A DNA stretch of 64,000 nt from positions 1 through 64,000 of the IMG/VR virus record IMGVR_UViG_3300031965_000004; one strand, 5' to 3'. The notes beneath the pieces are model-generated. The model was not told where the DNA came from and did not search any database. It saw only the letters and a program-made list of their open reading frames with translations. This document shows positions 8,526 through 56,621 of this stretch, in pieces. Source of the DNA: a virus. The position numbers and the translations under genes were made by a program. Each line of letters starts with the position of its first letter. Position 1 is the stretch's first letter.

Positions 8526-9089
8526 TTAGACGCCTTCGAGTTTGCGTTCGAGTTTGCGCTTGAGTCGCTCATTCTCCGTGCGGAGCTGGTTCACGTCACG
8601 CACGGCCTCACCCCAACTCCCGCGCATTTGGTAGTAGGCTTCCTCGAAGTCTTGCCATTCGTGACCGTCTTCGACCGACGAGATTTGGAAGTCCCCTTCG
8701 CGGATCGTGAGGCCGCAGAGCTCGAACACGCGCTCGACGAGCGCCGTCGTTTTCGCCCCGCAGTTGTAGCTCTTACGGAAGTCGGCGAGCGTGACGTCCC
8801 GTGCCCAAGTCTCCATGGGGACGAGGTCTCCGCGCAGGGCCGGCCTCACGCCGCGCGCCCCCCACGCTTGCAGCGCAACTTTGGCAAACGCGGTCAGGAC
8901 GTTAGTCCTCATGGCCTTGCTCACGTCGCCCTCGCCGAGCCTCGCGACGGCCTCTGGGTAGGTGAGCGAGTGCAGGTCAGGGTTGCCCTCGGCACGGTTG
9001 CGCCGCACGCAGTAGGCGAGCGCATTGGCCTCCGTTGGATCCTCACAAAACGTCCGCCACGCCAACTGAACGATCGCGTCTTGACTCAT
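8526..9089 (-). CDS. RNA polymerase alpha-CTD-like (HhH) domain protein with N-terminal leader module and C-terminal coiled coil
   Basis: GGAGGA SD; TLADFRKSYNCGAKTTALVERVFELCGL resembles the alpha-CTD NxGxKS..I...L...GL motif. Confidence 0.6.
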   Translation of the reverse strand: MSQDAIVQLAWRTFCEDPTEANALAYCVRRNRAEGNPDLHSLTYPEAVARLGEGDVSKAMRTNVLTAFAKVALQAWGARGVRPALRGDLVPMETWARDVTLADFRKSYNCGAKTTALVERVFELCGLTIREGDFQISSVEDGHEWQDFEEAYYQMRGSWGEAVRDVNQLRTENERLKRKLERKLEGV

Positions 9090-11007
9090 ACTGTAGGTCC
9101 TCCACGCCAGGCTGGGCGGAAGCCCAGGTTGAAGTCTCGGAAAGCCGGCCTGTCCGGGCCCCGGGCGGCTGGACGCGCCCACCAGGCGGAGTGGTGCTGG
9201 CCGCCGCCGCGGCGGCGGCGGCGGCTGGCTGATTATAGAACGCGCTGAAGTCGCTGAAGTCGCTGAAGATGCGGATGGGAGATACCACAGTAGCGGCGGG
9301 GAAGCGTTCTGTGTCGTATAGCGGTTGGCGCCACGCGCGGGAGCCCACGGCGCCAACCGCCGCCGCGCAAGGCCGCGTCGGGTGGATAGGGTCCGAGCTC
9401 TCCTCAACCTCCAGCGGCTCGCCAGGCAGGGCGGAATCCAAAGTTGAATCTCCGCCCTGTGATCGTCCTCCGATCGGCCTGGCGACAGAAGGACGCGGTG
9501 TAGGACCAACTACCGCCGCGACCGACGCGCCGGCCGTAGGGTCCGAGCTCTGCTCACCCTCCGACGACGCGCCAAGCAGGCCTGAAGCCGAGTTCGCTGC
9601 TCCAGTCGCCCCGCCCGTCATTGAATCGCAAGGCCGAGCGGCAGAGGGACGCGGAGTAGCCCCAACCACCGCTCCGGCTGACGCGCTTGCCGTAGGGTCC
9701 GGGCCCTGCTCATCCCCCGCGATAGACGGGTCTGAAGCCGAGGTCGTTGCTCCATCCAAACACGTTTCGGCGGCGCATGGCCGAGCGGCAGACGGACGCA
9801 GCGTAACTCCAGGGGCTGGCACGAAGGACGCGCCAGACGTAGGGTCCGGGCTCTGCTCACCCTCCGCGGCGCCATGCCGGTCTGAAGCCGTGGCAAGCGC
9901 TCCAGATGCCTCGCCCGGCTGTGCCCCGCAAGCCCGACCGACAGATTTGATGGGCGTCGACCCAACCGCCGCCGCGAAAACCGAGTCGGTATGGGTAGGG
10001 TCCGGGCCCTGCTCACCCCCCGCGAATCCGTTCTCAGGCGCGCCCTCGTAATCCCGCGTCCACGCGCTTCGGGTCCATTCGAAGACGTTGCCGACCACGT
10101 CATGCAGTCCCCACGCATTGGGCTTCTTCATGCCGACCGCCTTGTGGCCGTCCCTCCAGTTGCCGCCATACCAGGCGATCTGGTCCAGGTCCGCCAAGGT
10201 GTCCCCGTTGGGATACTGGGTGTTGCTGCCAGCTCGGGTGGCGTATTCCCAGCACGCTTCAGTGGGGAGCTGAAACCCGACACGCTCCCCGGCGTCATTC
10301 CAAAGCCACGCTTGGTAGATCGCCTCGTCGGTCTCGTCGAACGCGAGCAGCCCAAGGATCGCCACGTCGACTTCCCCGTCCTCGCGCCGTGGGTGCGGAG
10401 CCAGGTGCATGGACTCGTCCCCCCACTCAACCTCAGCCCATGAGACCCACGTCTCGTCGGCGGACTTGAACCGCGCGCCAGAGCTACGCGCGAAGTCAAG
10501 CCGGTTGATGCGATCCACGACCTCGCGGCAGTGGTCCCATGACACCGACTCTACGGGGTGATCCCCCCACAACCGGCCGTCCGAGTCCATGCGGCTGAGG
10601 CGGCTTGCCCCGGGGCCTTCTGTCGGGAAGTGGCTCGGCGCCTCGCCCGTAATGCGGAACCACTCGCGCGCGGTGAACGGATACTTCGCCATCAAGAAGG
10701 GCTCGCTGAACACTCGCCTGTGTTGCGGCCTCTCGTCGTCGGATCCCTCGCCTTCAGGACTCCCCATGAGGAACTCCCCGGCGGGAATCAGCACGAAGAC
10801 CGCCCCGGTCGTCCGGTGCCGGAACTCCGGCATACCTTGGGCGTTGGCGGGCAGTTCGGTGAACAGAGTGCTAGTCGCCAACCGCAGCGCGTAGGGCACC
10901 TCGCGCCCCGTGCGCTGATACGCCGCGACCAGACCCCTTGCCGCTTCGAGGTCCCCCTTGTCCGCGTGATACGCCCGCGCTAGCAGGCTGATTCGGTCGT
11001 CGGTCAT
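9043..11007 (-). CDS. FGE-sulfatase (SUMF1 / C-type-lectin fold) domain protein; the fold-completing C-terminus lies in -1-frame cassettes
   Basis: FVLIPAGEFLMGS, ERPQH, HPVESVSW, LPTEACWEYATRAG, KPNAWGLHDVVGNVFEW; the RGG.W and GFR motifs are absent in frame 0. Confidence 0.9.
   Translation of the reverse strand: MTDDRISLLARAYHADKGDLEAARGLVAAYQRTGREVPYALRLATSTLFTELPANAQGMPEFRHRTTGAVFVLIPAGEFLMGSPEGEGSDDERPQHRRVFSEPFLMAKYPFTAREWFRITGEAPSHFPTEGPGASRLSRMDSDGRLWGDHPVESVSWDHCREVVDRINRLDFARSSGARFKSADETWVSWAEVEWGDESMHLAPHPRREDGEVDVAILGLLAFDETDEAIYQAWLWNDAGERVGFQLPTEACWEYATRAGSNTQYPNGDTLADLDQIAWYGGNWRDGHKAVGMKKPNAWGLHDVVGNVFEWTRSAWTRDYEGAPENGFAGGEQGPDPTHTDSVFAAAVGSTPIKSVGRACGAQPGEASGALATASDRHGAAEGEQSPDPTSGASFVPAPGVTLRPSAARPCAAETCLDGATTSASDPSIAGDEQGPDPTASASAGAVVGATPRPSAARPCDSMTGGATGAANSASGLLGASSEGEQSSDPTAGASVAAVVGPTPRPSVARPIGGRSQGGDSTLDSALPGEPLEVEESSDPIHPTRPCAAAVGAVGSRAWRQPLYDTERFPAATVVSPIRIFSDFSDFSAFYNQPAAAAAAAAASTTPPGGRVQPPGARTGRLSETSTWASAQPGVEDLQYESRRDRSVGVADVL
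9233..9391 (-). other. Divergent or degenerate cassette 5 (-1 frame)
   Basis: PYPPDAALRGGGWRRGLPRVAPTAIRHRTLPRRYCGISHPHLQRLQRLQRVL*; lacks GFR. Confidence 0.65.
9404..9541 (-). other. Alternative C-terminal cassette 4 (-1 frame)
   Basis: PYGRRVGRGGSWSYTASFCRQADRRTITGRRFNFGFRPAWRAAGG*. Confidence 0.9.
9554..9697 (-). other. Alternative C-terminal cassette 3 (-1 frame)
   Basis: PYGKRVSRSGGWGYSASLCRSALRFNDGRGDWSSELGFRPAWRVVGG*. Confidence 0.9.
9710..9844 (-). other. Alternative C-terminal cassette 2 (-1 frame)
   Basis: PYVWRVLRASPWSYAASVCRSAMRRRNVFGWSNDLGFRPVYRGG*. Confidence 0.9.
9857..10000 (-). other. Alternative C-terminal cassette 1 (-1 frame)
   Basis: PYPYRLGFRGGGWVDAHQICRSGLRGTAGRGIWSACHGFRPAWRRGG*. 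Confidence 0.9.
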
Positions 11008-55674: not shown

Positions 55675-55860
55675 ATGAACCTGACTTGCTCGCCCTGTGA
55701 CCGCCCTATGACGTTGATCTACCAGGCGAAGGACGCTCGAGGCGTGGACACGTTCACGTTTCACTGCGAGGGGTGTTCGGGTCGGGTCGGCGTCCAGAAC
55801 GCCAAGGCGAAGCCTCCTCGCCCCAAGCCGCTCCCCGTGCCGTTTGTGCGCGTGAGGTGA
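55675..55860 (+). CDS. Small Zn-ribbon protein
   Basis: CSPC..CEGC. Confidence 0.6.
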   Translation: MNLTCSPCDRPMTLIYQAKDARGVDTFTFHCEGCSGRVGVQNAKAKPPRPKPLPVPFVRVR

Positions 55861-56621
55861 AGTCGGCCGTCCTCTACTTGCGCGTCTCGACGCAGCTCCA
55901 AGAGCGCGAGGGCGCCTCGCTCGACGCCCAGGAGGACGCTTGCCGGCGCTACGCCGCGAGCCGAGGGCTCGCCGTGGCCGGGGTGATCCGAGAGCAGGTC
56001 TCGGGGCGCAAAGAGACGCTCGCGCGCCCCGGGCTGCTCGAGGCGATCGACTACCTCGAGCGGGGGGAGGCGACCCACTTCGTCGTGTGGAGCCTCGATC
56101 GCTTCGCCCGCAACGTCCATAGCGCGACCGACTTGATTCACCGCTACTTCGGCGAGGGGCGCGACTACGACTTGCTCGTGGCCACGGAGGAGATCGACAC
56201 CCGCACGGCCGGTGGCCGGATGCAACTCCACATTCGCCTGGCAATCGCCCAATACGAGGCGGAGTTGACGAGTGAGCGCATTCGGGCCACGAAGCGGTTT
56301 CTGCGCGCGTCCGGGTGCTACCAGGGGGGCAAGGTCCCCTACGGGTATCGCGTCGGGAAGGGCACGCGGAACGGTTCCCGCCGGCTGGTGTCGCACCGCC
56401 GGGAACAGGCGATTCTGCGCCTTGCGTGCAAGCTCCGCCAGTCGGGTCTGTCCTTGCGCCAGTCGGCAGCCCTAATGGAAACTAAGGGGGTGACGAATCG
56501 CAAAGGGCGACGGTTCGACTCTCGCCAGATCAAGCGAATGGTCGACGCCGCCCACCTCGAGAAGGACTCCCTGGATGGCCATTCCCGACGCCACGCTGAA
56601 GCCGACCGGAGCACGGCCTGA
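55857..56621 (+). CDS. Serine recombinase (resolvase/invertase catalytic domain plus recombinase-type DNA-binding tail)
   Basis: YLRVST, SG..RPGL, SLDRFAR, GGKVPYGY. Confidence 0.92.
   Translation: MKSAVLYLRVSTQLQEREGASLDAQEDACRRYAASRGLAVAGVIREQVSGRKETLARPGLLEAIDYLERGEATHFVVWSLDRFARNVHSATDLIHRYFGEGRDYDLLVATEEIDTRTAGGRMQLHIRLAIAQYEAELTSERIRATKRFLRASGCYQGGKVPYGYRVGKGTRNGSRRLVSHRREQAILRLACKLRQSGLSLRQSAALMETKGVTNRKGRRFDSRQIKRMVDAAHLEKDSLDGHSRRHAEADRSTA

Follow-up and report, generated by a model that had tools for sequence, protein, structure and literature searches.

A boundary repeat in a phage lectin-fold cassette array is a probable −1 ribosomal frameshift site used in series

The dnaX gene of E. 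coli, from which tau and gamma are made, directs a −1 ribosomal shift with a Shine-Dalgarno (SD)-like AGGGAG, a spacer of 10 nt, the heptamer A_AAA_AAG, and a 3′ stem-loop. In phage lambda, the tail assembly chaperone G/GT results from a −1 frameshift on G_GGA_AAG near the end of the open reading frame (ORF), which yields two products at a fixed ratio. The heptamer G_GAU_UUU is the experimentally proven −1 site of pea enation mosaic virus (PEMV) RNA2 (PMC4737148; Atkins review PMC5009743). Here, an element with likeness to these systems is described, the boundary repeat of a cassette array on the minus strand of IMG/VR record IMGVR_UViG_3300031965_000004, a 94-kb phage record (GC 67%, CheckV completeness 74%) of which positions 1 to 64,000 were analyzed and are called the window in the following. 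What the sequences show directly is the anatomy of the array, the phase and conservation of its heptamer, its dual coding, and a motif that is portable. Our preferred interpretation, held with a probability of about 0.7, is that the repeat serves as a compact −1 programmed ribosomal frameshift site and is used in series.

The array belongs to a frame-0 ORF composed of a body with the FGE/C-type-lectin fold (~11007-10000) and, following it, a linker rich in Ala, Ser, Thr, Pro, and Gly, which stays open across all cassettes. Residues 71-329 of this ORF match positions 5-206 of the 255 positions in Pfam profile PF03781 (E 3.3e-30; 106 bits, cut-off 23.3); the body is thus without profile positions 207-255, which correspond to the last ~45 residues of the fold. 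Behind the body lie five tandem units of 147-156 nt each (68-83% column identity), every one of which reads, in frame −1 relative to the body, ..GPY..R..RGGSW..CRSA.R..GFRPAWR.GG followed by TGA. When compared with a home-built FGE hidden Markov model (HMM; 285 positions, made from 46 ordinary FGE-domain proteins), cassettes 1-4 matched positions ~240-281, with independent E-values of 4.5e-4, 1.1e-4, 6.9e-8, and 1.5e-5, respectively, and Pfam placed cassette 4 at positions 213-254 of PF03781 (E 0.12). Because these matches fall at the end of the profile, and in the −1 frame only, the cassettes are to be regarded as alternative copies of the C-terminal segment absent from the body. No ATG, GTG, or TTG with an SD was found at the cassette starts. 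As not one cassette of the window lies in frame 0, a complete fold would need a shift. The parts of the array are as follows.

9043..11007, minus strand: frame-0 ORF of 654 codons, from the ORF list
10012-9860, 9856-9713, 9709-9557, and 9553-9407, minus strand: cassettes 1-4, −1 frame, the missing C-terminal fold segment (FGE HMM and Pfam)
9995..10021, minus strand: junction 1, body/cassette 1, GGGGG-G-TGA-GCAGGGCCC-GGACCCTAC; heptamer G_GAC_CCT at 10003-9997; predicted −1 product of 383 aa
9839..9865, minus strand: junction 2, GGAGG-G-TGA-GCAGAGCCC-GGACCCTAC; heptamer at 9847-9841; stop of cassette 1, TGA, at 9859-9857; predicted −1 product of 432 aa
9692..9718, minus strand: junction 3, GGGGG-A-TGA-GCAGGGCCC-GGACCCTAC; heptamer at 9700-9694; predicted −1 product of 484 aa
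9536..9562, minus strand: junction 4, GGAGG-G-TGA-GCAGAGCTC-GGACCCTAC; heptamer at 9544-9538; predicted −1 product of 534 aa; the only copy with a bulged hairpin as minimum-energy fold
9386..9412, minus strand: junction 5, GGAGG-T-TGA-GGAGAGCTC-GGACCCTAT; heptamer at 9394-9388; opens into the disrupted fifth cassette
9086..9403, minus strand: fifth cassette, disrupted, beginning ..LRGGGW and ending ..FNLGFRPAWRGGPTV-TGA; FGE HMM independent E-value of 3.5e-4 for the terminal piece

The junctions are embedded in direct repeats at 9386-9416, 9536-9566, 9692-9722, 9839-9869, and 9995-10025 (n = 5), which on the minus strand all read GG[AG]GG-N-TGA-N9-GGACCCTA[CT]. The cassette-frame reading Gly-Gly-TGA-x-x-x-GGA-CCC-TAY, together with the GG[AG]GG block, had been given in the initial annotation and was recovered in all five copies. 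Read in the frame of the body, each junction is ..GAG GGT GAG CAG NGC NCG GAC CCT ACN (..EGEQxxDPT), and G_GAC_CCT is in phase with frame 0 at 5/5 window junctions. As a signal, the repeat therefore holds GGAGG, 13 nt, and G_GAC_CCU within 27 bases. Only 13.9% of Pro codons in the phage are CCT, and only 11.9% of Gly codons are GGA; that such rare codons stay constant therefore points to constraint at the nucleotide level.

Homologous loci were found by a protein search with the body alone, their DNA being fetched by a metagenome scan (no relatives of the body protein were found in viral contigs), which gave 55 junctions in 11 loci. Their layout is the same as that in the window, with 2 to at least 11 junctions per locus and at identities down to 48%. 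Across the 55 junctions, C-GGA-(CCC/TTT)-T-[AC]-C is invariant or nearly so, the heptamer being G_GAC_CCU in 43 cases and G_GAU_UUU in 12. The latter is identical to the heptamer of PEMV RNA2 and stands in the same phase; the former is its C-for-U analogue and would allow full re-pairing in the A site and partial re-pairing, by tRNA-Asp, in the P site. The swap of CCCT for TTTT changes residues in both frames and keeps the run on which tRNA can re-pair one base back. PEMV RNA2 differs in that its single site acts on the eukaryotic ribosome and is stimulated by downstream hairpins plus a long-distance interaction.

Coding capacity was found in both frames. In the homologous arrays, the −1 frame is open between junctions, and in four of the loci (L033, L036, L038, and L040) frame 0 is open for 1000-1360 codons, with 10-27 stops in the other two frames; both frames, 0 and −1, are evidently maintained. 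The 957-nt array of the window contains no stop in frame 0, six in −1, and two in +1. The TGA of the repeat is the terminator of the preceding cassette and not part of the shift signal, because the first junction (body/cassette 1) carries the motif without an adjacent stop in 5 of ~9 homologues. Where present, the stop is placed 9 nt before GGA in the subfamily of the window and 3 nt before it in the distant subfamily.

According to the mechanism proposed here, a ribosome in the body frame would come to stand on the heptamer such that its P site holds tRNA-Asp, paired with GAC, and its A site tRNA-Pro, paired with CCU. Upon slipping back one base, the tRNAs would move onto GGA and CCC, TAC and the cassette would be read next, and the shifted ribosome would terminate at the TGA of that cassette, located within the next repeat. 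Ribosomes that do not slip would continue in frame 0, in which the cassette is a disordered linker, up to the next junction. One mRNA could in this way give rise to nested proteins of 383, 432, 484, 534 aa, and so forth, with a common lectin-fold body and a differing ligand-facing C-terminal segment. The GG[AG]GG located 13 nt before the heptamer would probably pair with the anti-SD and promote the slip, as in dnaX. The slipping of ribosomes, its mode (both tRNAs in tandem or the P-site tRNA only), and its efficiencies are what we infer from this arrangement.

The motif is not confined to arrays. Its 20-mer core is present in four unrelated IMG/VR phages, and 4/4 also share the upstream GGAGG[GA], which was outside the query. 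When the middle was left free, 19 contigs matched at a 9-nt spacer compared with 3 at the 10-nt control spacing. The 27-mer occurs singly in unrelated phages (GC 46-71%) and in Gemmata genomes, and in all informative single-copy cases the gene is encoded in frame 0, with the motif inside a linker. The genes concerned are the following.

L009, L016, L022, L125: helicases sharing an N-terminal domain, motif in single copy
L111, L113/L018, L025/L112, L008: RecT-like, Sak4-like, and another recombination-type protein, motif in single copy
L010, L011: tail-module loci, in which a ~130-175-aa ORF ends 18-21 codons past the motif, followed by a −1 ORF of 80-84 aa and then by an ORF of 450-600 aa

Directly behind the motif, six of nine such genes encode a Cys-rich −1 peptide with CxxC. 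Cys makes up 10.3% of these peptides, compared with 2.1% when the remainder of these genes is read in the −1 frame, and they contain 7 CxxC where 0.28 would be expected (P ~2e-8); the −1 peptide of L125 (CPTCGG) is an additional case. Such zinc-ribbon-like tails lack their own start codon, which implies that they are translated through a frameshift, and the replication and recombination genes weigh more as evidence than the tail-module loci. The RecT-, Sak4-, and helicase-type genes would accordingly be predicted to yield a truncated isoform, like gamma of dnaX. Internal initiation of the −1 ORFs was considered and rejected as a general explanation: a GTG lies in the motif only if N14 is T, as in L009 and L016. 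The tail-module loci carry the motif at the place equivalent to that of the frameshift in lambda G/GT; in contrast to lambda, the second ORF may have an independent start, and the proteins are recognized by neither Pfam nor PHROGs. With these two databases, the G-like and T-like ORFs, the putative tape measure, and most neighbors of both loci remained unnamed; the one neighbor that received a name, in L010, is a tail terminator encoded a few genes ahead of the G-like ORF.

When one genome per species was searched (185,579 species), the 20-letter motif was found in only two Gemmata genomes, one of an isolate (Gemmata sp. IIL30) and one metagenome-assembled, at three places (L111, L112, and L113). 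Because of this restriction, Gemmata-like planctomycetes are suggested as hosts of the motif-bearing phages. Neither of these Gemmata genomes gave a match to the body protein at E ≤ 1e-20. A relaxed pattern gave 4 matches in 301 planctomycete genomes, against 3 in the reversed control, and hence no general enrichment; in viral contigs it retrieved mainly chance G-P-Y coding plus the helicase-type case L125. In INPHARED GenBank phages, blastn with a 39-mer produced partial, near-noise matches only. A broader reading, which we rate somewhat better than an even chance, is that GGAGG, 13 nt, and G_GAC_CCU/G_GAU_UUU form a portable module spread among phages and prophages of Gemmata-like planctomycetes. 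Its single use would split replication and recombination proteins (RecT-like, Sak4-like, and helicases) into full-length and short zinc-ribbon-tailed forms, and its serial use (up to at least 11 times per ORF) would diversify lectin-fold tips at the level of translation, with neither reverse transcriptase nor DNA rearrangement.

Some features of the single-copy genes were noted in passing. The different recombination proteins of L111, L113, and L018 share a ~70-residue C-terminal domain, ..LLALMH.L..SWPEVRDRAEG..AAAC.I.GT.G.., which sits behind a Pro/Ala/Thr linker containing the motif, and a shift would swap this domain for a short CxxCG..CxC tail. The full-length helicase at L016:3556-6027 ends in a CxxCG zinc-ribbon-like tail of its own (..VCAECGKPGY..HRRCC..), and the −1 product would fuse the N-terminal domain to a similar small Cys motif, bypassing the helicase core.

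Resemblance to dnaX extends to the internal SD-like block ~10-14 nt before a −1 heptamer and to the alternative C-terminus. Upstream of the junctions, the calculated duplex with the anti-SD has a mean of −8.0 kcal/mol, compared with −4.45 kcal/mol at control positions in the same arrays (Mann-Whitney P 2e-16), and a duplex of −6 kcal/mol or stronger is reached by 89% of junctions versus 32% of controls. The spacer between block and heptamer has its mode at 9-12 nt and spreads over 4-18 nt; in the window, 13 nt separate the end of GGAGG from the heptamer, a distance that reportedly lies within the spacer range described for dnaX-type SD elements by Larsen et al. in 1994. The block thus probably pairs with the anti-SD tail of 16S rRNA and promotes the slip, a role we only infer because conserved codons overlap the block and its spacing varies. 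Unlike dnaX, the family has heptamers (G_GAC_CCU/G_GAU_UUU) that do not follow X_XXY_YYZ, no conserved 3′ stem-loop was found, and up to 11 uses per ORF occur in series. An Rfam scan of 8900-10300 returned nothing relevant. The only tRNA encoded by the phage is tRNA-Met, which leaves no shift-prone tRNA candidate.

Several points speak against a frameshift site. The SD-like block coincides with conserved codons (for W-R-G when read in −1, for G-E when read in frame 0). A conserved downstream stimulatory structure was not found (mean z of −0.44 over 63 junctions). Re-pairing in the P site, from GAC to GGA, retains only 2/3 of the pairs, and no published record of G_GAC_CCU as a slippery heptamer was found in the literature searched, in which neither arrays of this kind nor the motif could be traced. 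The openness of frame 0 over the 957 nt of the window is not significant by itself (P 0.13, synonymous shuffle), and the junction copies of one locus are paralogues and not independent observations. Finally, the −1 ORFs of L010 and L011 also have a TTG or ATG overlapping the upstream stop; frameshifting is therefore not required there, and these two loci lend weak support.

The initial annotation had taken the repeat for a bulged hairpin, of which copy 4, AGGGT-GAGC-AGA-GCTC-GG-ACCCT, was the example. For this copy the hairpin is indeed the minimum-energy fold. The further claim, that most pairs are retained in the other copies, was not confirmed, nor was the significance it implied: in none of the other four is it the minimum-energy fold, an A.C mismatch interrupts the inner stem in copies 1-3, and an outer pair is lost in copies 3 and 5. 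Compared with dinucleotide shuffles, copy 4 had a fold z-score of −1.68 and the other four +1.00, +1.27, +0.90, and +0.33. Covariation was assessed on 25 element copies from the window, the homologous loci, and unrelated phages. In this alignment, 77.8% of cells were paired versus 77.3% in column shuffles, 164/500 of which reached the observed value; there was one compensatory cell, four of the nine pairs were broken in 8-15 of the 25 copies, with no matching changes at the partner letters C22, N17, C16, and G15. The hairpin was therefore rejected as a signal, given the absence of covariation and a stability no better than that of shuffled sequence (copy 4 alone folds), and is a by-product of the fixed letters GGGT...ACCC. 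Of the suggested frameshift stimulator, the frameshift part fits, with G_GAC_CCU in phase and an SD-like block upstream, whereas the hairpin part has not; the repeat holds the shift site itself. As the hairpin is accidental, the effort of stem mutagenesis can be spared.

That the repeat is a functional signal and not a relic, as also claimed at the outset, is supported by the in-phase heptamer conserved throughout the family and by the occurrence of the motif in unrelated genes. A relic would have arisen by tandem duplication of the 3′ end of an FGE-type gene together with its stop, followed by a frameshift in the gene, so that conserved residues mimic a signal where no recoding takes place. 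The units are, as this would have it, ordinary ~150-nt tandem repeats with the degree of identity given above, the fifth cassette is visibly decayed, and the openness of frame 0 in the window alone would be no obstacle. Decay does not, however, explain why the out-of-frame layout is retained in homologues down to 48% identity and over up to 11 junctions, why both frames are open between junctions, with more than 1000 codons in frame 0, why synonymous sites are fixed to the rare codons CCT and GGA, or why the motif also stands at the first junction, where no cassette ends, and in unrelated genes; a relic is thus improbable. No more probable is a site of DNA recombination (an attC-like folded strand or simple homology) at which cassettes are gained, lost, or converted, the hairpin being a cruciform or folded substrate. 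The attC sites of integrons have imperfect inverted core sites, RYYYAAC ... GTTRRRY, arranged as R″/L″-L′/R′, and fold as a single strand. The array resembles integrons in having direct repeats at the 3′ ends of short promoterless cassettes, one copy of which forms an imperfect hairpin with two extrahelical bases. Cassette number also varies among homologues. In contig X2, which represents a related strain and comes from an independent sediment metagenome, precisely one cassette (156 nt) is missing, and the joint at 9560/9717 falls within two boundary repeats. The cassette number is therefore labile, evidently through ordinary unequal recombination, but a crossing-over of this kind can take place between any tandem repeats and would explain X2 without a dedicated site. 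In contrast to attC, GTTRRRY is absent from the repeat (its nearest approximation, on the plus strand, being GTAGGGT), the stem is neither conserved nor covarying, and each cassette is part of a gene and keeps a fixed frame relative to the upstream body. The recombinase at 55857 by which cassette excision was to be tested is a 282-aa serine recombinase (55773-56621, plus strand; PF00239, Resolvase N-terminal, E 3.2e-31), that is, a member of the resolvase family encoded 46 kb away; neither IntI nor another integron-type tyrosine integrase was seen, although no scan for tyrosine recombinases covered the rest of the record. Spacings between the repeats are all multiples of 3, so that recombination between them never alters the frame relation and a deletion never puts a cassette in frame. 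Moreover, a recombination site would need neither an open frame 0 nor a slippery heptamer in phase, and would not be expected as a single-copy motif in genes without cassettes. On these grounds, an attC-like site finds no support.

An explanation at the protein level, which we hold to be very unlikely, sees in E-[GD]-[ED]-x-x-x-D-P-T a protease or Asp-Pro self-cleavage site within disordered linkers, nucleotide conservation being secondary. Frame 0 does encode an acidic ..EGEQxxDPT peptide within a linker in all contexts. Yet synonymous positions are fixed (GAC and CCT, and GGA in the other frame) across phages with a GC content of 46-71%, the residue at position 6 varies (G, D, V, and A) while adjacent letters stay, and the change from CCCT to TTTT turns Pro into Phe and retains the homopolymer run; the cassettes and the Cys-rich −1 peptides would also be left unexplained. 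The initial annotation had further suggested a take-off/landing unit as in T4 gene 60, in which the ribosome, by bypassing or by stop read-through in the cassette frame, would leave at the Gly before TGA, land on GGA 12 nt on, and join the cassettes. Like gene 60, the window has, in its cassette frame, a stop after a Gly codon, a GGA farther downstream, and a neighboring SD-like element; every window cassette ends with Gly-Gly-TGA, with GGA 9 nt past the stop, and the SD-like block and (in copy 4) the hairpin overlap this stop. The gap, however, is 12 nt as opposed to 50 in gene 60, the hairpin is not conserved, and the codons are unmatched: those before the stop are GGG, GGG, GGA, GGG, and GGT, which agree with the GGA landing codon in copy 3 only, and distant homologues have CGN or AGN in this place (..W R G R stop). 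The stop itself is often missing at first junctions. Moreover, because the body is read in a different frame, a hop within the cassette frame could not connect it to any cassette and would instead fuse two alternative copies of one structural segment. Such bypassing was therefore discarded as the least probable of the explanations considered.

If the repeat is a −1 frameshift site, G_GAC_CCU would enter the small set of non-canonical bacterial −1 heptamers, and its 27-nt context, being transferable, could become a recoding tool. The motif in a prophage gene of Gemmata sp. IIL30 (L112) provides a cultured handle. The site would also supply a mechanism for cassette arrays on phage genes of the FGE/lectin fold, and translational hedging of host-binding specificity would be a third route beside mutagenesis by diversity-generating retroelements (DGRs) and invertible tail-fiber segments. 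In DGR proteins of the TvpA type, this same C-terminal segment forms the variable region. TvpA of Treponema denticola (PDB 2Y3C) has the same FGE-type C-type-lectin fold as the model of a relative of the window ORF, P0001 (Foldseek rank 2), and the same C-terminal ~45 residues are diversified. The difference is that diversity in the array is hard-wired in a few cassettes, with a choice proposed to be made at translation, and involves no mutagenic retrohoming. A DGR as such was rejected for the window: no reverse transcriptase was present (PF00078 was not found in the 94-kb record, 74% complete), and differences between cassettes are not adenine-specific, mismatches being spread over all four bases (A ~20%).

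In four relatives (P0001, P0002, P0003, and P0006), the last cassette lies in frame 0. An AlphaFold2 model of P0001 had a predicted local distance difference test (pLDDT) of ~90 for the body and the last cassette and below 35 for the 100 residues encoded in frame 0 by two out-of-frame cassettes, a contrast that makes a long disordered insert ahead of the last segment plausible. PvdO, TvpA, and FGE were on top of the Foldseek matches of this model, with template modeling scores (target) of 0.6-0.77.

At its distal end, the array of the window runs out in irregular sequence. The fifth cassette is interrupted by a TAA, by a GCG run at 9209-9225 (Ala9 in frame 0), and by a 9-nt tandem repeat, CGCTGAAGT × 2.9, at 9243-9268; X2 has 18 nt fewer in the latter, the repeat number thus being variable. 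The end is marked by a degenerate junction, GGAGGACCTAC (9103-9093), within GGAGGACCTACAGTATGA (9086-9103), which is junction-like with one C missing. The GGAGG of this terminal element is the SD of the next gene (ATG at 9090-9088), and the ATG overlaps the TGA of the last cassette as ATGA (9090-9086).

Other relatives depart from this layout. In the distant ones (L036:4080-7080, L040:600-3300, and L033:1590-4590), many −1 cassettes are unlike the FGE C-terminal segment, and frame 0 forms an ORF rich in Ser, Thr, Pro, Gly, and Glu that exceeds 1000 codons and runs off the locus. A second junction type, ..GFRPAWRSA-TGA-TCCCGCCGG.., with ..HGEARDPAGAS.. in the next frame, is present in L030:4480-5200, L041:4340-4900, and P0001; it sets the following cassette at +1 relative to the preceding one, by which the last cassette enters frame 0 in these relatives. 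L030 has one extra +1-frame cassette beyond the real stop.

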